Shown here: positions 106-14,519 of the stretch, piece by piece
Position numbering within the stretch: position 1 is the stretch's first letter
Layout of the letters: the number at the start of each line of letters is the position of its first letter
Assembly (NCBI GenBank): GCA_044220955.1
Contig: JBGAQA010000136.1
Location: 1-15,066 of the forward strand
Direction of reading: 5' to 3'
DNA length: 15,066 bases
From: Sandaracinaceae bacterium
Lineage (GTDB): Bacteria; Myxococcota_A; Polyangia; Polyangiales; Sandaracinaceae
Notes under the pieces: generated by a model
The model's database searches: none
The model's input: only the letters and a program-made list of their open reading frames with translations
Told to the model about the DNA's origin: nothing
Made by a program: the position numbers and the translations under genes

Positions 106-2121
106 TCAGCCGAGATAGTCGCTCGGGTCGACGATCCGCCCCGCGATGGCGCTCGCCGCGACCGTGAGCGGGCTCGCGAGGTACACCCGACCCGGGCCGC
201 TCCGACCCGGGAAGTTCCTGTTGATCGCGCTCACCGTCACCTGGTCCTTCTTCTCGCTCGCGCCCGGACCCGCGTTGATGCACGCACCGCAGCTCGGCTC
301 GATCATCTCGACGCCCACCTTCGCGAAGAGCTCGATGTAGCCCTGCTCCTCCGCGTACCTTCGGATGCGCTGGCTGCCGAACTGGATGTAGCAGCGCACA
401 CCCTCCTTCACGCGCTGCCCGCGCGCGAGCGCCTTGCGCATGACGAGCGCGTACATGTCCATGTCGACCTTCTTGCCGCCCGTGCAGCTGCCACCGTAGG
501 CGATGTCGATCGCGACGTGGTCCTCGAACGTCGCCATCGCGACGCCGTTGCGCGGATCGCCCGGCGTCGCGAGCATCACGGGGACGGCCCCGAGATCGAT
601 CTCGAAGGTGTCGAGGTAGACCGCGTCGGGGTCGCTCCGCACGATGCGCCTCTCGAGCTCGGCCTTCGGGATCCCGCGCATCTCGTGCAGGTAGTCGACG
701 ATCCGCGCGCTCGGCTCGAGGATCCCCGTGAACCCACCCGCCTCGACCGCCATGTTCGTGAGCGTCGCCTGCTCGTCCATCGGCATCGTGGCGAGCCCCT
801 CGCCGGTGAACTCGAGCACCTTGCCGATGCCCCGGCTCGTCCGGAAGAAGGGCTGCGAGAGGATGTGGAGCATCACGTCCTTCGCGCTGACGCCCGTGCG
901 GAGCGCGCCCCGCAGCACGAAGCGCACGGTCTCGGGGACCTTCACGCGCACGTCGCGGGTGAACCACGCGTTCGCCATGTCCGTCGAGCCGACGCCGAAC
1001 GCGAACGCACCCAGGGCGCCGCCCATGCAGGTGTGGCTGTCCGTGCCCGCGATCACCTGTCCGGGCAGGCCGAGATCCTCGATCACCGCGTTGTGACAGA
1101 TGGCCTCGGAGCCGCGGACCTCGCCGCGCTCGCCTCGCACCTCGCCGTAGAGCTTGAGCGCGTGCTTGGTCGCGAACTTCTCCTGCGTGAGAGCGAGGCC
1201 GTTCGCCTTGTCGAGCAGGCCCATCTCGACCTTGTCCTTGGGCATCACGTCGCGCAGGAACGTCAGATGATCGCGGAACGTGAACACGCTCGCCGGCTCC
1301 GCGACCTCGGCGCTCGCGCCGAGGGCCGCGACGAAGAGCGCGTCGGCCATGGGTGTCACGTACTCGTGGCTGAAGCGCACGTCGGTGCGGATGAAGAGAG
1401 CGTCGCCGGGCGCGACCTCCGGCACACCGAGGGCGCCCGTCTTCGCGTCACGGACGGCGTGGGACGCGATGATCTTCTCGACCATCGTCATCGGCCTCGC
1501 CCGCCTCCCGGGCGGGGGCGTCGTGATCGCTGGCGGCGCGATCTCGCCGGCCATGCGCCGCTGGTTGTACGCGAAGAGGCCGCCCTCGCGGACGATGTCC
1601 GCCGAGATGGCGTCGAGGCCCGACGTGAACGCGGACGCGTCGATCGTCTCGCCGGCCAGGAGCCGCGGGATCAGGCCGAAGTCGCTCGAGGTGAGCAGGC
1701 CGATGTTCTGGCAGTTCTGCCCGTAGATCTTCTCGATCGAGCGCGCGATGACGAGCTTCACGCCCGCCGCGACCTCGCTGTAGGGCGCCTGCTCGCGGGA
1801 GCTGCCGCAGCCCTTGGACTCGCCGCTGACGACGACGGAGAAGCCGCCGTTCTTGAGCGTCCCCCGCGTGAAGAGGCCGCCGCGGAGGCCGTGGAGCGAG
1901 TACTCGCCGAGCGTCTCGTCGTAGTGGAAGCAGACCCAACCGGGCGCGATCTCGTCGGTCGAGATGTTGTCGATCAGCTTGGGGCCCTCGCCTCGCGCGA
2001 TCGCGGCGACGGTCGCGGGCTCGAGGCTCTCGCCCGCGAGCTGGCGCACCAGGAGCTCCGTGTCTTCGGTGAGGAACAGGATGCGTCGACCGTCGAGCCG
2101 GAAGGAGCCGGAGCGCGCCAT
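106..2121 (-). CDS. Aconitase-family [4Fe-4S] hydro-lyase (3-isopropylmalate dehydratase/homoaconitase-like), small (swivel) subunit fused N-terminally to the large subunit
   Basis: N-terminal swivel motifs NISTDEIAP and GCGSSREQA. Large-subunit motifs MTMVEKI, RDH, ICH, GTDSHT, TNMAVE, GSCTGG, PSCGAC (three Fe-S Cys), NRNFPGR and YLASP. ATG at 2121 is preceded by GAGG, so it is preferred over the GTG at 2127. Confidence 0.9.
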   Translation of the reverse strand: MARSGSFRLDGRRILFLTEDTELLVRQLAGESLEPATVAAIARGEGPKLIDNISTDEIAPGWVCFHYDETLGEYSLHGLRGGLFTRGTLKNGGFSVVVSGESKGCGSSREQAPYSEVAAGVKLVIARSIEKIYGQNCQNIGLLTSSDFGLIPRLLAGETIDASAFTSGLDAISADIVREGGLFAYNQRRMAGEIAPPAITTPPPGRRARPMTMVEKIIASHAVRDAKTGALGVPEVAPGDALFIRTDVRFSHEYVTPMADALFVAALGASAEVAEPASVFTFRDHLTFLRDVMPKDKVEMGLLDKANGLALTQEKFATKHALKLYGEVRGERGEVRGSEAICHNAVIEDLGLPGQVIAGTDSHTCMGGALGAFAFGVGSTDMANAWFTRDVRVKVPETVRFVLRGALRTGVSAKDVMLHILSQPFFRTSRGIGKVLEFTGEGLATMPMDEQATLTNMAVEAGGFTGILEPSARIVDYLHEMRGIPKAELERRIVRSDPDAVYLDTFEIDLGAVPVMLATPGDPRNGVAMATFEDHVAIDIAYGGSCTGGKKVDMDMYALVMRKALARGQRVKEGVRCYIQFGSQRIRRYAEEQGYIELFAKVGVEMIEPSCGACINAGPGASEKKDQVTVSAINRNFPGRSGPGRVYLASPLTVAASAIAGRIVDPSDYLG

Positions 2122-2156
2122 GAACACCTCGCGGCAGAGAATCTAAATGACCGATC

Positions 2157-6388: not shown

Positions 6389-7321
6389 TCAGAGGAGGGA
6401 AAGCGCCAAGCCGAAGCGCACGCCGCCGTCGGAGATCCGCACCTCCGACGCGCCCGAGCGGTCGAGCACGTACCCGAGGATCGACGCGCCCGCCACGATG
6501 ACGTCTTCCCGGCCGGCCTCGACGCCCACGGCTCGAGCGCGCCCCGCGCGGTCGGCGCGCGAGAGGCCCGCCACGGCGGCCCGGAGCCGGTCCGTGGCCA
6601 CGATCTCGCCGTGAGGGGTCGGGGCGCCGCGCGCGAGATCGCGCCCGAGGGCGACCGCCGCCACGTTCGTCGCGGTACCGGCGAGCATCACGAGCGGCGG
6701 CAGGATCGGGATCTCGCGCATCGCCCTGGCCACGTCGTCCCGGATCGCGGCCAACTGGGCGGAGGTTGGCGCGGCGGCTCCGATCCGGTGACGCTCCGTG
6801 AGCCGTACGGAGCCGACGTCCACGCTGACACTCGAGGTCACGCGTCCCCCCTCGCCGCGGACGATCTCCGTGCTGCCGCCCCCGATGTCGACGACCGTGA
6901 CGGGCCCTGGCGCCACGTCGAGACCGAAGAACGCGCCGCGAAAGGTCAGCTCGGCCTCGCGCGCGCCGTCGATCACGTCGAAGCGGTCCACCCTGTGTCG
7001 CGCCTCGGCGACGAAGACCTCCCGGTTGGCGGCGTCGCGGAGCGCGCTCGTGCCCACGCCCACCACCAGCCCGGCGCCCCGCTCGCGCGCCTCGGCGGCG
7101 AGCTCTCCGAGCGCGGCGAGCGTGCGCGCGATCGCGTCGTCGCGGAGCACGCCGGACGCGTCGACGCCGGCGCCGAGCCGCGTGACGCGCGACCCCTCCC
7201 ATGCGAGGCGCGGCGGACCGGGGTCAGACGCGTCGAGCACCGATACGAGCACCGTGTTGGTGCCCACGTCGAGGGTCGCGACGCGGCGATGCGCCGGGCC
7301 GGGCGCCGGTGTGGGCCTCAG
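6389..7321 (-). CDS. Ppx/GppA-family phosphatase (short form, no HD domain); start uncertain, probably CTG
   Basis: ATLDVGTNT, TRLGAGV, GTSALRDA, EAELTF, DIGGGSTE, GSVRLTE, REDVI, GVRFG. No nearby in-frame ATG/GTG/TTG precedes the first motif; CTG at 7321 overlaps the upstream TGA. Confidence 0.85.
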   Translation of the reverse strand: MRPTPAPGPAHRRVATLDVGTNTVLVSVLDASDPGPPRLAWEGSRVTRLGAGVDASGVLRDDAIARTLAALGELAAEARERGAGLVVGVGTSALRDAANREVFVAEARHRVDRFDVIDGAREAELTFRGAFFGLDVAPGPVTVVDIGGGSTEIVRGEGGRVTSSVSVDVGSVRLTERHRIGAAAPTSAQLAAIRDDVARAMREIPILPPLVMLAGTATNVAAVALGRDLARGAPTPHGEIVATDRLRAAVAGLSRADRAGRARAVGVEAGREDVIVAGASILGYVLDRSGASEVRISDGGVRFGLALSLL

Positions 7322-8154
7322 GAGCCGGAGCCCGACTCGGTGAGCGACGAGAGGTCGGGGAGCTCGTCGATGTTCGGCAGCAGCACGATCTCGATGCGGC
7401 GGTTGTTCTGGCGGCCGGCGTCGGTGTCGTTCGTGTCCACGGGCTGCGTGTCGGCGTAGCCGGCGGCCGAGAGGCGATCGGCGGGCATCCCGTTGTCGAT
7501 CATGAAGCGCGCGACCGACACGGCGCGCGCGGTCGAGAGCTCCCAGTTGCTGGCCCAGCGGCGCGAGTGGATCGGCGTGCTGTCGGTGTGCCCCGCGATC
7601 TGGAACTGACGGCCCTCGATGCCGACGAGGATGGCCGTGATGTTCTGGATGATCGTCTGGCCCTCGGGCTTGAGCTGATCGTCGCCCGCGTCGAAGAGCA
7701 CGCCCGCGGGCAGCTCGACGACCATGCGGTTGCGCACGACGCGCACGTGGAGCTGGCCCGAGTCGATCATCGCCCGGAAGCGCTCGAGCATCGCGCGGAA
7801 CGCCGCCAGGCGCGCGCTCGCCGCGGCCTCGCGCGCGCGCAGCTCGTCGAGGGCGCGCTGCGTGTCGGAGAGCGACGTGGAGAGCGAGGTGCGCTCGGCG
7901 CGCAGGCCCTCGACGTCCTGACCGAGCGCCTCGAGGCGGTCGGCGAGCTGCTGGTTCTGCGCCTCGAGCTCGTGGATGCGCGCCTCGAGCTGCGTGCGCT
8001 GCTCCTCGGAGTCGTGCAGCTGTCCCTCGAGCTCGGCCACGCGCGCCACGGCGCGGCGCTCGGTCTCGGAGGGGCCGCAGCCGACCGCGAGATAGGCGAG
8101 CCCCACCACCAACACGAGTCCCGCCCATGCGCGGGTGTTTCGGAGTGTCGTCAT
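7318..8154 (-). CDS. OmpA/MotB-family peptidoglycan-binding lipoprotein with a long coiled coil
   Basis: Lipobox LAVG-C, heptad-rich coiled coil, then VLFDAG, IAGHTDSTP, SNWELSTARAVSV, AAGYADTQP, NRRIEI. ATG at 8154 is preferred over the TTG at 8190. Confidence 0.9.
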   Translation of the reverse strand: MTTLRNTRAWAGLVLVVGLAYLAVGCGPSETERRAVARVAELEGQLHDSEEQRTQLEARIHELEAQNQQLADRLEALGQDVEGLRAERTSLSTSLSDTQRALDELRAREAAASARLAAFRAMLERFRAMIDSGQLHVRVVRNRMVVELPAGVLFDAGDDQLKPEGQTIIQNITAILVGIEGRQFQIAGHTDSTPIHSRRWASNWELSTARAVSVARFMIDNGMPADRLSAAGYADTQPVDTNDTDAGRQNNRRIEIVLLPNIDELPDLSSLTESGSGS

Positions 8155-8161
8155 GCGGGCG

Positions 8162-8212: not shown

Positions 8213-9181
8213 TCAAGTGCTCGCGACAGGCGCCGCGTCTCGCGCGGCCACCTGCTTGGCGGCCGCGACCCGCGAGAGGCGCACCCAGAGCCCGGCGCAG
8301 AGCGCGAGAAGCACGACGCCGATCCACTGCGAGGTCGTCAGGCCGGCGGCGCCGCCGCGGTCGTCGGCGCGGAAGTACTCGAGCACGAAGCGGAGCACCG
8401 CGTAGAGCGCGGTCGAGACGCAGAAGACCTGCCCGTCGAAGCGCTTGCGCGGATGGAGCCACTGGATCGCGAAGACGGAGATGAGCAGGCAGCCGCCCGC
8501 TTCCATCAGCTGCGTGGGGAGCACCGGGTGCGAGGCGTAGCTCGCGTCGGGCAGCTCGTGCAGGCGCCACTGCGCCTCGCTCGCCGGCGACCACGCCGGG
8601 AAGCTCACGCCCCACCACGCGTCGGTGCGCTGCCCGAAGCAACAGCCGCCGAACCAGCACCCGAGGCGCCCGAAGAAGAGGCCCAGCGGGAGCACGAGCC
8701 CGCCCATGTCGAGCGCCTTGAGCGGCGGGAACTTCTCCTTCCGGAGGAAGTGCATCGCGTAGATCGTCGCGAGGATCACGCCGCCGTACCACGTGAGGCC
8801 GCCCTGCCAGAAGCGGATCCACGCCCAGCAGTCCTGCTCGGTCGGGTGGCACACGCCCGCCGCGGCGTCCCAGCTGCCCTCCACCCACTCGCTCGCGCAC
8901 TGCGCCTCGGTGATGTGCCAGTCGACGAGGTGGTAGTCCGTGCAGAGGTGCACGTAGTCCATCAGGAAGCCGTCGAAGAGCACGTGCGCGATGCGCGCGC
9001 CGGCCACGCCGGTGATCACCGAGGCGAGCGAGAGGTCGATGATGACCTCGTGGTCGAGCTTCTCCTGCTTGGCCCAGCGGACGCCGAACCAGGTGCACGC
9101 GGCGAACGCGCACGTGAGCATCACGAAGTAGGCAGGCAGATCCTCGTCGAGGAGCGGGACGTGGCCGAAGCTCGGGATCAT
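8213..9181 (-). CDS. lgt: Prolipoprotein diacylglyceryl transferase
   Basis: Multi-TM protein with GARIAHV, FWQGGLTWYGG, GRLGCWFGGCCFG, WGVSFP, PTQLME, YAVLRFVLEYFR and SQWI; ATGA overlap with the lspA stop. Confidence 0.92.
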   Translation of the reverse strand: MIPSFGHVPLLDEDLPAYFVMLTCAFAACTWFGVRWAKQEKLDHEVIIDLSLASVITGVAGARIAHVLFDGFLMDYVHLCTDYHLVDWHITEAQCASEWVEGSWDAAAGVCHPTEQDCWAWIRFWQGGLTWYGGVILATIYAMHFLRKEKFPPLKALDMGGLVLPLGLFFGRLGCWFGGCCFGQRTDAWWGVSFPAWSPASEAQWRLHELPDASYASHPVLPTQLMEAGGCLLISVFAIQWLHPRKRFDGQVFCVSTALYAVLRFVLEYFRADDRGGAAGLTTSQWIGVVLLALCAGLWVRLSRVAAAKQVAARDAAPVAST

Positions 9182-9918
9182 GCGGCGCTGTCGGGCTTCG
9201 AGGTCTCGCTCTCGCTCTCGCTCTCGCTCTCGCTCTCGCTCTCGTCTTGCTCCGCGCTCGGCGCTGGCGCCGTGCGCTTGGTGCTCGCGTCCTGCCGCAT
9301 GCCGTCGATCAGGAGCAGGATCACGCCGACCGTGATCGCGATGTCGGCGACGTTGAACGTCGGATAGTCGAACCGATCCATCCAGAGGATCGGGTGCTCG
9401 TAGTGGAAGTGGATGAAGTCGACCACGTACCCGTAGAGAAACCTGTCGAAGAAGTTCCCGATCGCCCCCGAGATCACCAGCGGGACGCTCACTGCGAAGA
9501 AGGGCCCGCCCCGCCCCTGGTAGAAGAGCCAGAGCAAGACGCAGGTCGCGGCGATCGCGGCGATGCCGAACACGACACGGCGGACGATCGTCGGGGCCTG
9601 TCGAAGGAGCCCGAACGCGGCCCCGCAGTTCTCCGCGTACTCGAACTCGAGCGTCTCGCCCACGATCGAGATCGTGTCCGACGGCACGCGCTGGTAGCGG
9701 ACGAAGCCGCTCTCGTCCATCGCGCAGACCTCGGGGGGCTCACCGACGCGGGCGTGCGAGAGCGCCCCCTCGGCCCACGACTTGGACGCCAGGTCGGCCG
9801 CAGTGAGCGCCGCCGCCGCGACGACGCAGATCACGAGCGCGCGGGTCGAGCGCCGGACGGAGGGCGGCGGCGCCTCCGCTTTCCCCGCGTCGGAGGCGGA
9901 CTTGTCGCCCTTGGTCAC
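9178..9918 (-). CDS. lspA: Lipoprotein signal peptidase (signal peptidase II)
   Basis: DLASK, NCGAAFG, GAIGNFFDR, VVDFI, FNVAD (both catalytic Asp present). The GTG start overlaps the upstream stop; the tail is acidic (ES)n. Confidence 0.94.
   Translation of the reverse strand: MTKGDKSASDAGKAEAPPPSVRRSTRALVICVVAAAALTAADLASKSWAEGALSHARVGEPPEVCAMDESGFVRYQRVPSDTISIVGETLEFEYAENCGAAFGLLRQAPTIVRRVVFGIAAIAATCVLLWLFYQGRGGPFFAVSVPLVISGAIGNFFDRFLYGYVVDFIHFHYEHPILWMDRFDYPTFNVADIAITVGVILLLIDGMRQDASTKRTAPAPSAEQDESESESESESESETSKPDSAA
9204..9244. repeat. (TCTCGC)n hexamer microsatellite encoding (Glu-Ser)6-Glu in the LspA tail
   Basis: Six perfect units plus 5 nt, with no synonymous variation. Confidence 0.95.
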
Positions 9919-10034
9919 TGCTGCTGGCCGTCCACGATCGGACGCCCTTCCCCGGCGCCCCGTGTGAAGACCGGACAGCCACCGAGCGCGAGCGCGGCGA
10001 AGAGGACGAACAGGGTCAAGACGAGAGCGCGCAT
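9915..10034 (-). CDS. Small 39-aa lipoprotein, translationally coupled to lspA (absent from the ORF track)
   Basis: Hand translation: MRALVLTLFVLFAALALGG-CPVFTRGAGEGRPIVDGQQQ*. Basic n-region, hydrophobic h-region, lipobox LGGC, SD-like GGTGGGA before the ATG, mostly G/C third positions. The stop overlaps the lspA start as GTGA. Confidence 0.75.
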   Translation of the reverse strand: MRALVLTLFVLFAALALGGCPVFTRGAGEGRPIVDGQQQ

Positions 10035-10134
10035 GTTCCCACCGGGCGCGGCGCGTCGGCCGCGAGCGGCAGGGTGTAGCAAGGGCGGGCCCGGGCGCGC
10101 CAGTGGAGAGGTGACGTCCCGGTGCTGCGGGGGC

Positions 10135-11465: not shown

Positions 11466-14372
11466 ATGCTTCGGTCGCTCGTACCTCTCTCTTTGGTGTT
11501 CCTGCTCGGCACGTGCCCCCCGGCGGCGGCCCAGGAGTCGATCGGCACGCTGCGCGAGCGGCTCACGGCCGCCCGCGCGGCCCACGGCGAGATCCCCGCC
11601 GGTGCCTACACCAGCATCGCGTACACGATCGACGTCGCCGAGCGGATCGAGGAGCGCTTCCCCGTCGCGTCCGAGTCCTGGCGGATGCGGGCGGGCCGCT
11701 TCCTGCACGCCACCGAGCAGGGGCGCGACCCCTACCTCGAGCAGCGCGGCGCCATCACCAACCGCGGCTACGACTCCCCCGCGTCGACCATCCTGCAGGG
11801 CTACGGCATCTACATCCCGCCCGACTACGACCCCTCGCGTCGCTATCCGCTGCTCGTCATCCTGCACGGGGGCTCGAGCAACGGGAACCTGTTCCTCGGC
11901 GTCGTGCTCGGGAACAACATGGACTGGCTGACCTACAACCAGCACCTCTGGGACGACTACGAGCCGCGCTGGTCGCCCGACTGGATCATCGTCACGCCCG
12001 ACGGCTTCGGCCAGGTGCTCTGGCGCTGGATGGGCGAGGACGACGTCCTGCGCGTGATCGACGACGTCGAGCGGCACTACTCGATCGACACCGATCACGT
12101 GGTGCTCGGCGGCATCTCGAACGGCGGCGTGGGCACCTACGCGATCGGTACTCGCCACGCGTACCGCTTCAGCGTCGTCACCGCGATGGCCGGCGCGCCG
12201 AGCTGGGTGCAGTACACCGGCGGGCAGCCCACGGCCGACGAGACGACCGCGATGCTCATGCAGTCGGGCATGCACCTCGCGGAGAACACGCTCGACACCG
12301 ACTTCCGCATGTACCACGGCACCGTGGACCCCGGCCCGATGCGGCCTGCGTACGTGCACGAGATGGAAGAGCACATGCGCGGCCTCGGCATCGAGCCGCA
12401 GATGACCTGGTACGAGATGGGGCACGACATCCTCTACGTCGTGCACCGCCACGGTCGCATCTACGACGTGCTGGCGCCGATCACGCGCGATCGGCGTCGC
12501 GCCGACGTGCGCCTGGTGACGGGCGACTACCGGGCCAGCCGCCAGCACTGGCTGACGGCCGAGCGCATCGTCGACTTCCCACGCCTCGCGCACGTCACGG
12601 GGCACGCCGAGGATCAGCTCGTCACGATCACGACCGAGCGCGTCTCGCAGCTCGCCATCGATCTGCGCGACGCGCCCGTCGGCACGGGCGAGCTCCTCGC
12701 GGTCGTCGTCGACGGGCAGGAGGCGTACCGCGGACCGCGCGCCTCGCTCGGCCACGTCCTGCACCTGCGCCGCGACGCGGACGGCTGGCACCCCGGCTTC
12801 CTCGAGCAGGAGCCCGGCACGCTCGCCAAGGTGCCCGGAGCGTCGGGCCCGATCACGGACGCGTACCGCGACGCGATGATCCACGTGTACGGGACGCAGG
12901 ACCCGCGCGTGACCGACGACCTGCGCCGCGCGGCCGAGCGCGGCTCGCACGGCTGGGTCCAGGGCCTGTGGAACTACCACCAGCGCGTGGTCGCCGACAC
13001 GGCGCTCACCGAGGAGGACGTGCGCGACAACCACGTCGTCCTCTACGGCACGCCGGGCTCGAACGCGGTGCTCGAGCGCATCGCCGACCGGCTACCGATC
13101 CGGGTGACCGCCGACGGCGTGCGCGTGGGGGACACCACGTACGACGATCGAGGCGTGGGCGTCCGCTTCGTGTACCCGTCGCCGCTCGTTCCCGAGGGCG
13201 GCGCGCCTCGCTACGTGATCGTGCAGGCGGCGCCGACCGCCGACGCGGTGATCGCGGGGAACAACCTCCCCGACTTCGTGCCCGACTGGATCGTGTACGA
13301 CGCCGCGTGTACGCGGACCCGGCCGCGCCTGATCCTGGGGCGGAGCGCGCCGGCGATGGGGTTCTTCGACGACGCGTGGCAGGTGCGCACTTCCGTGAGC
13401 GCGGCCCGTTCGGGCGGCGACGACGGACCGCTCGCCGAGGCGGAGGGCGTCGTGCTGGTGCAGGGGGGGAGCGACGGGGGAACAGCCGCGGAGCCGCCCG
13501 CGGCGCCGGACGCCGGCCCTGCGCCCGAGTCGGACGAGGCCGCGCGCCTCGCCGAGCGCAACCGGATCCTGGGCGTCGGCCCGGACTACGTCCTGCCGCC
13601 CGACGTGCTCGCGCAGACGCCGCCGGTGACCCTGCCCTGGTTCACCCCGGTGCCGCCCGTGCCGCGCGTGCCACGCCACTTCGCGGTCCCCGAGGACGAC
13701 CCCGCCGGCCCCATCGCGCGCCTGATCGCGCGCCGCATCCCGACCTTCCCGAACTACCGCGGCATCATCCCGGGCGGCGAGTGGCGCGTGCGCGACGACG
13801 CGCGCTGGAGCGTCCGTCCCGAGGCCGACTGCCTCGCCGCGCTCGCGACCGCCGGGATCACGGTCGCTCCGCTGCACGACCTCGACTCGCCGCTGGCCCG
13901 CCCGCTCCGCGTGGACTCCCCGATCGGGGGCGTGGAATTCGTGATGACGCCGGAGCACGCCGCCGAGGGCGTGGTCGTCGCGCTGAGCTGCGAATTCATC
14001 GACCGCCTGCAGCAGCTCACGACCGTGCTGCGCGCGCACCACGTCGCGCGCGTCGAGGTGCTCAGCGCGTACCGCACGGCGCCGCGCACGAGCTTCCACA
14101 CGATGGGCCTCGCGCTCGACATGGCGAGCTTCACCACCGACGACGGCACCGTGCTCTCGGTCGAGCGCGACTTCGTCGAGACGCCGACGCGCCGAACGTG
14201 CGCGCGCCGCCGGCCGCGCGCGCCGGCCGCCCGCGAGCTGCGGGACATCGCGTGCGAGCTCGCCGACACGAGCGCGTTCTCGTCCGTGCTGACGCCGAAC
14301 TACAACGACGGCCACCGCAACCACTTCCACGTGGACTGCCGGCCGGACGACCCGCGGGTGTTCGTGCGGTAG
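11466..14372 (+). CDS. Secreted alpha/beta-hydrolase fused to a C-terminal Extensin-like (peptidase M15-type Zn) domain, 968 aa
   Basis: Signal peptide from ATG 11466 (..PAAA-Q). Hydrolase motifs YIPPDYDPSRRYPLLVILHG, GISNGG (Ser 12117), HGTVD (Asp 12327), MGH (His 12423). Pro/Ala/acidic linker. C-terminal SAYR, SFHTMGLALD (H-x6-D) and LTPNYNDGHRNHFHVD (HxH). Confidence 0.85.
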   Translation: MLRSLVPLSLVFLLGTCPPAAAQESIGTLRERLTAARAAHGEIPAGAYTSIAYTIDVAERIEERFPVASESWRMRAGRFLHATEQGRDPYLEQRGAITNRGYDSPASTILQGYGIYIPPDYDPSRRYPLLVILHGGSSNGNLFLGVVLGNNMDWLTYNQHLWDDYEPRWSPDWIIVTPDGFGQVLWRWMGEDDVLRVIDDVERHYSIDTDHVVLGGISNGGVGTYAIGTRHAYRFSVVTAMAGAPSWVQYTGGQPTADETTAMLMQSGMHLAENTLDTDFRMYHGTVDPGPMRPAYVHEMEEHMRGLGIEPQMTWYEMGHDILYVVHRHGRIYDVLAPITRDRRRADVRLVTGDYRASRQHWLTAERIVDFPRLAHVTGHAEDQLVTITTERVSQLAIDLRDAPVGTGELLAVVVDGQEAYRGPRASLGHVLHLRRDADGWHPGFLEQEPGTLAKVPGASGPITDAYRDAMIHVYGTQDPRVTDDLRRAAERGSHGWVQGLWNYHQRVVADTALTEEDVRDNHVVLYGTPGSNAVLERIADRLPIRVTADGVRVGDTTYDDRGVGVRFVYPSPLVPEGGAPRYVIVQAAPTADAVIAGNNLPDFVPDWIVYDAACTRTRPRLILGRSAPAMGFFDDAWQVRTSVSAARSGGDDGPLAEAEGVVLVQGGSDGGTAAEPPAAPDAGPAPESDEAARLAERNRILGVGPDYVLPPDVLAQTPPVTLPWFTPVPPVPRVPRHFAVPEDDPAGPIARLIARRIPTFPNYRGIIPGGEWRVRDDARWSVRPEADCLAALATAGITVAPLHDLDSPLARPLRVDSPIGGVEFVMTPEHAAEGVVVALSCEFIDRLQQLTTVLRAHHVARVEVLSAYRTAPRTSFHTMGLALDMASFTTDDGTVLSVERDFVETPTRRTCARRRPRAPAARELRDIACELADTSAFSSVLTPNYNDGHRNHFHVDCRPDDPRVFVR

Positions 14373-14374
14373 GC

Positions 14375-14488
14375 CTCTCGCTCTCGCTCTCGCTCTCGCT
14401 CTCGCTCTCGCTCTCGCTCTCGCTCTCGCTCTCGCTCTCGCCCTCGCTCTCGCTCTCGACCTCGACCTCGCTCTCGACCTCGCCCTCG
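14375..14488. repeat. Intergenic hexamer microsatellite, 19 x NNCTCG
   Basis: Eleven perfect CTCTCG units (14375-14440), then eight mixed CCCTCG/CTCTCG/ACCTCG units; it starts 2 nt after the TAG. Confidence 0.97.
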
Positions 14489-14519
14489 CCCGGTGCGCTA
14501 CGATCGCCATCGTCCCTCG

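Follow-up and report, generated by a model that had tools for sequence, protein, structure and literature searches.

The lspA-lgt operon of a Sandaracinaceae bacterium (order Polyangiales) is headed by a 39-residue mini-lipoprotein gene (the mini; 9915..10034, minus strand, of the 15,066-nucleotide stretch of DNA analysed, the window) that, judged from sequence comparison, is a real, conserved and unstudied microprotein born by domain loss. Very probably, the mini descends from the 5′ end of a gene at the head of the lspA operon that encodes a lipid-anchored prolyl isomerase in Polyangiales, the enzyme domain having been lost in Sandaracinaceae and the lipopeptide kept. Codon comparisons indicate purifying selection on its peptide, and gene distribution indicates that it is dispensable; its product may be a small helper of lipoprotein maturation.

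The open reading frame on the minus strand (10034-9915), proposed by the first-pass annotation as a 39-residue lipoprotein with a clean lipobox, translates exactly as written, and both overlaps reported with it were confirmed in the sequence: the mini TGA (9917-9915) overlaps the lspA GTG (9918-9916) as GTGA, and the TGA of lspA and the ATG of lgt together form ATGA at 9181-9178. Profile matches bear out the identities given to lspA (9178..9918, minus strand; PF01252, E 5e-33), a signal peptidase II that carries a clade-specific insertion on the periplasmic side and a Cys pair, and lgt (8213..9181, minus strand; PF01790, E 1e-44), the prolipoprotein diacylglyceryl transferase. The predicted peptide comprises a type II signal peptide (residues 1-19; 9978..10034, minus strand) with an Arg in the n-region and terminating in the lipobox residues L-G-G, a conserved mature motif C-P-V-F-T-R (9960..9977, minus strand) in which Cys20 is the predicted lipidation site, and a variable low-complexity tail rich in Ala, Glu, Gly and Pro (9918..9959, minus strand), probably the remnant of a linker to the lost isomerase domain; the mature part is 20 residues long. 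Its basic n-region, hydrophobic h-region and lipobox with invariant Cys are those expected of a prolipoprotein, PF08139 matches it weakly (E 0.37, below cut-off) and sequence searches of Pfam, NCBIfam and PDB placed it in no family. Entericidins and colicin lysis proteins resemble it in size and architecture, with a weak Atlas lead to PF02402 (0.89), but there is no Pfam match and no toxin-antitoxin pair or bacteriocin gene beside the mini in the window; that identity was rejected, as family profile and operon context both fail.

Upstream of the mini, the Shine-Dalgarno-like motif that had been noted is present but weak (GGTGGG, 10038..10043, minus strand, read off the sequence). It is preceded by a putative extended −10-like promoter element, TGCTACAC (10074..10081, minus strand), that recurs upstream of relatives' minis, the word being identical in genomes G000, G001, G002, G004, G005, G007 and G023 (G-numbers denote the genomes examined); in two relatives the ATG lies only 18 nt past it, so that the transcript would be nearly leaderless. 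A strict sigma-70 scan detected no promoter, and no terminator-like site was detected either. Two RNA runs, of which small shares only were used, gave contigs without coverage of the mini. A chance reading frame is ruled out by a strict lipobox scan, which returned 13 short candidates in the 7.5-Mb genome versus 0 and 1 per 2 Mb in two shuffles, together with conservation in relatives; a frameshift artefact was also rejected as an account of the frame. The earlier description of the frame as hidden was too strong because public collections already list the mini and its homologues as genes (AKF06572.1, a hypothetical protein of Sandaracinus amylolyticus; others are labelled "lipoprotein").

To place the mini within the order, we compared 112 lspA loci, one per genome, hand-picked from 172 matching genomes among 251 of the order (a set without most members of one large genus and of family f17, and with several loci ending near a contig edge). 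In the first 30 loci, a short lipobox reading frame, recognised from its position and lipobox without recourse to the motif, was the first gene in 12. Across the full set, a C-x-x-F-T lipoprotein stands upstream of lspA in 28 loci (13 minis, 14 parvulins and 1 FKBP), the 13 syntenic minis being distributed over 12 of the 28 loci of the host family Sandaracinaceae (f1; five genera) and one locus of family f9 (G144). The first-pass annotation had proposed a search for a conserved lipobox frame before lspA with the same overlap: the conserved frame was found, in those 12 of 28 family loci, but the exact 4-base overlap only in 6 of the 13 minis, the rest having 1-base overlaps or short spacers. 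The mini is absent from the other 16 Sandaracinaceae loci, and a profile search of those genomes brought up no strong copy at another site, which is why we regard it as dispensable. Two protein database searches added 63 short homologues (mature lengths 14-47; a 64th row was an unrelated repeat protein), with Leu at −3 in 61 of the 64 profile hits and Gly at −1 in all 64, the repeat protein included; because the selecting profile contains the motif, conservation among these homologues is partly circular, and they show spread more than constraint.

Substitution patterns among the 13 syntenic minis are those of a selected peptide. Over the codons from G−1 to R+6, mismatch at first, second and third positions is 0.088, 0.000 and 0.52, respectively. 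The 18-codon core has a pN/pS of 0.12-0.49 in six within-genus pairs and, over all pairs, of 0.63 in frame versus 0.88-1.49 in the five other frames, which bears out the earlier expectation of a ratio below 1, with selection in the claimed frame only. For the whole mini gene the ratio is 0.12-0.67, close to the 0.04-0.56 of LspA (eight pairs), and for the tail 0.16-1.61; the C-termini are conserved neither in motif nor in length. All 13 syntenic minis have Arg+6, against none of 15 long forms, and C-x-x-F-T occurs in none of the 378 long predicted lipoproteins of the window's genome. That the peptide itself is selected is indicated by the survival of the motif through both parvulin-FKBP exchange and domain loss, with the minis adding the invariant Arg+6.

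The long forms have the same signal peptide and C-x-x-F-T start as the mini, followed by a Pro-rich linker and then a parvulin (14) or FKBP (1) domain; two further long forms were found in G028 and G050. They match PrsA/PpiC parvulin models with E-values of 1e-15 to 1e-17, none of them reaching the equivalog cut-off, or FKBP_C, as PrsA/PpiC parvulin and FKBP lipoproteins do, whereas profile search found no isomerase domain in the mini; they differ from PrsA in being about 175 aa long, a bare domain on a Pro-rich tether, with no PrsA chaperone domain. Flanking genes agree on both sides between mini and long-form loci: trx/rhh-like genes precede a mini (G007), parvulins (G047, G037) and the FKBP (G038), and MscS precedes a mini (G144) and a parvulin (G206). 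A profile built from 12 minis only and searched against the 251 genomes (29 candidates scored per genome) gave 11 matches outside the family at E<0.001, 7 of them at the head of an lspA operon. The same slot and start, the matching flanks, the mini-only profile and the rarity of the motif are the reasons for taking the mini as the front end of a lipid-anchored isomerase, and its homologous N-terminus and syntenic slot place it in a Polyangiales C-x-x-[F/L]-T isomerase-lipoprotein family, defined here. The homology with the long forms spans about 21 columns, much of it signal peptide; among 8000 candidates scored, the mini profile found as longer homologues only two mis-started minis, the long forms having come from synteny and not from that search. 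In the window's genome (88% complete), no close match to the short parvulin gene was found, the best (44%) being to another protein. The first-pass annotation had counted descent from the 5′ end of a longer gene against the mini; such descent is indeed probable, from an isomerase gene, yet the mini appears to be a selected derivative and not debris.

The slot at the head of the operon is also held by isomerases with other starts. In family f17, a parvulin lipoprotein heading ileS-lspA-lgt starts C-N-R-A-P (conserved C-N-R-A-P-x-E-P; L352-L371; 20 regions, lspA being reached in 5 and ileS only in 1), and the G206 parvulin starts C-P-A-L-V. The FKBP long form has the order FKBP-ileS-lspA-lgt (G038); no motif gene was found upstream of ileS in the regions of f3, f8 and f13 covered, some of which end at contig edges. 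A prolyl isomerase gene also lies beside ileS and lspA in the gammaproteobacterial ileS-lspA-fkpB operon, but FkpB is cytoplasmic and encoded downstream, whereas in G038 and f17 the order is isomerase-ileS-lspA-lgt and the isomerase is a lipoprotein at the operon head. Elsewhere, about 8 kb away from an lnt homologue, G000 encodes a lipoprotein with two FKBP domains (G000:C230:3623-4342, minus strand) whose start has E-P-x-F-[H/Q]-P in common with those of G025 and G038, both lspA-linked long forms, and a Cys-rich-repeat lipoprotein family (L059, L065, L075), not beside lspA, starts with a looser motif, C-P-[V/I]-[W/Y].

A related linkage was found at lnt in family f18, which is probably Polyangiaceae. 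Among the 30 best-scoring lnt loci (from 65 of 71 genomes with a match), 17 have an upstream isomerase (15 parvulins and 2 FKBPs), and C-x-x-L-T is present at 13 of the loci; 5 of the 15 lnt-linked parvulins are without C-x-x-L-T. The parvulin domains of lspA-linked f7 and lnt-linked f18 proteins group together (support 0.885, short alignment). One lnt locus carries a mini of its own, a 45-residue peptide with C-S-K-L-T (G073, L258:3735-3942, minus strand) that precedes a parvulin gene and lnt and has the same start as an FKBP in the congener G133; by this comparison it is a separate truncation in which the motif was kept again. No isomerase or motif gene was found upstream of lnt in 33 loci of other families of the order, nor within 1.5 kb of 9 lspA loci of f18 and f11, nor, outside the order, within 1.5 kb of 30 lnt loci and 21 + 10 lspA loci.

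What the retained peptide does may be approached by analogy with LptM (YifL, Escherichia coli, PF13627). According to the part of the preprint drawn on here, LptM is a microprotein lipoprotein in which, as in the mini, the conserved part is a few residues after the lipidated Cys and the tail is variable and disordered; nine residues at its N-terminus are enough for it to function (bioRxiv 10.1101/2025.01.03.631273). The motif differs and the mini has no PF13627 match, so it is not a member of the LptM family; LptM, moreover, binds LptD and is not described in that part of the preprint as enzyme-derived (bioRxiv 10.1101/2025.01.03.631273). We tentatively favour, at somewhat less than an even chance, the mini as an LptM-like lipid-anchored short motif, a dispensable accessory docking on the lipoprotein-maturation machinery. 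The peptide would be exported, lipidated by Lgt and cut by LspA, and the lipid-anchored C-P-x-F-T-R would then serve as a short docking motif, most likely on LspA, which is favoured as first partner because, in the genomes where lspA and lgt are separated (G144, G206), it is lspA that the gene accompanies. In the long forms, the motif would park the isomerase where the Pro-rich N-terminal tethers of new lipoproteins emerge (Pro lies within +2..+10 in 275 of 383 predicted lipoproteins), and in the mini the binding role alone would remain, as a stabiliser or tuner. Of the suggestions in the first-pass annotation, whose interpretation is partly supported, the "small modulator" remains the best.

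A possible site for such docking is the LspA insertion. The LspA model of a congener matches PDB 5DIR/6RYO; within the insertion one Cys is invariant in 75 aligned rows and a second, in N-C-G-x-A-F, is present in 90% or more, the pair probably forming a disulfide. Insertion-form LspA was matched strongly across the order except in families f11 and f18, and loci without the gene have the insertion as well: 84 of the 112 loci have no C-x-x-F-T gene, yet all have insertion-type LspA. Several observations weigh against docking. The motif is lineage-specific and not universal (f17, G206 and 5 of 15 lnt-linked parvulins); a single binding site would not readily account for the tie of the F-T class to lspA and of the L-T class to lnt; and operon position may reflect inherited order instead of partnership. 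A fuller version, in which a Polyangiales accessory subunit of the maturation enzymes docks by its lipid-anchored motif on LspA (or Lnt) and brings an exchangeable parvulin or FKBP to freshly cut Pro-rich N-termini, the mini being the docking module alone and regulating LspA, is doubtful.

The same origin and a real docking motif could also go with a different envelope machine as partner (the Lol transporter, BAM, LptD or a Sec accessory, as for LptM), the operon then providing co-expression only. A single gene family tied to lspA in some families and to lnt in another would fit a shared downstream partner, and a language model pointed weakly towards small lipoproteins like LptM (score 0.87, family on 18% of members); however, no gene for such a machine lies beside the mini or the long forms in the annotated loci, and both linkages point to maturation enzymes, leaving this rather unlikely. 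Alternatively, the truncated gene could be a vestige that carries translation from the promoter into lspA by coupling, its post-Cys residues being kept merely for clean precursor processing. Such a role would suit the position of the stop codon, which in 12 of the 13 syntenic minis is no more than a few bases from the following start, and repeated loss of the mini, with mini-free loci running from a similar promoter word directly into lspA. The residues themselves argue otherwise, since F+4, T+5 and R+6 are unneeded for clean processing and their C-x-x-F-T context is missing from the other long lipoproteins of the genome, Arg+6 is a mini-specific constraint and second-position changes within the motif are zero; we therefore consider the vestige unlikely.

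As the first gene, tightly coupled and a substrate of the downstream enzymes, the mini might instead be a sensor or leader whose processing by Lgt and LspA feeds back on lspA translation, as had been suggested. A chain as short as the mini is released before lipidation and cleavage, however, and the same coupling is present for the 160-residue long forms, no terminator-like site was detected and neither a C-terminal arrest motif nor length is conserved, which makes this very unlikely. SecM/MifM arrest leaders, too, bear a secretion signal and are encoded ahead of the machinery that they use, as the mini would be; an arrest leader of this type was rejected, because there is no conserved C-terminal motif, the chain is too short and conservation lies at the mature N-terminus, and the doubt already expressed about that mechanism was well placed. 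The direction of change could also be reversed, with a short lipopeptide ancestral and isomerase domains fused on several times. Parvulin and FKBP on the same start would be expected, and LspA trees do not resolve the deep branches (in FastTree the G144 mini locus falls among f9; in an AU test its joining with f1 was not rejected, p 0.286, so that the f9 mini may not be a separate truncation), but long forms occur in at least seven families (f2, f5, f7, f14, f15, f23, f24) plus f9, f11, f17 and f18 relatives, and minis in three. Domain loss is the simpler direction because of that wider span, the mini tail resembles the linker of the long forms, and the lspA-linked f7 and lnt-linked f18 parvulins cluster; fusion is highly improbable. 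A decoy against LspA-targeting antibiotics is barely credible, being suggested by location alone and by the extra lspA copies of myxovirescin producers (PMC8689077, which notes an lspA1-lspA2-lgt operon in Myxococcus xanthus), whereas the motif is common to enzyme-bearing ancestors and lnt-linked relatives and a substrate would presumably load LspA further and not bind the drug. Neither the sensor nor the decoy found support, because the conserved residues belong to the mature N-terminus and recur in the long forms, and over half of the family loci are without the gene.

The family suggests that lipoprotein maturation may include a step of proline isomerisation. Tied to lspA-lgt in some lineages and to lnt in another, and persisting when its enzyme domain is swapped or lost, this lipopeptide family is a compact candidate for an accessory subunit. 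Lgt, LspA and Lnt are antibiotic targets that, to our knowledge, are usually pictured without accessory subunits, and we know of no described dedicated protein partner of signal peptidase II, which is what the mini would be if the accessory-subunit reading were true. It also offers a clear case of a microprotein probably born by domain loss and kept under selection, with Sandaracinus amylolyticus as a cultured species carrying a homologue. A literature search found no description of the mini gene family, which supplementary small-protein lists could mention.

Other features of the window and its genome were recorded alongside. The Lgt protein has a Cys-rich insertion after its second helix, and matches in the genome number five for the Lgt family, two for LspA and three for Lnt. 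Directly after lgt lies a gene (7318-8160, minus strand) for an OmpA/MotB-domain protein that has a lipobox-like N-terminus and a coiled coil, and an aconitase-family gene (106-2127, minus strand) has the small-subunit domain fused ahead of the large one. On the plus strand, 11469-14372 encodes a large secreted protein with an esterase/peptidase S9-like domain and an extensin-like C-terminal domain. Short-unit repeats at 9194-9253 encode a Glu-Ser run in the LspA tail, and a similar repeat run occurs at about 14400-14500, after the gene ending at 14372.
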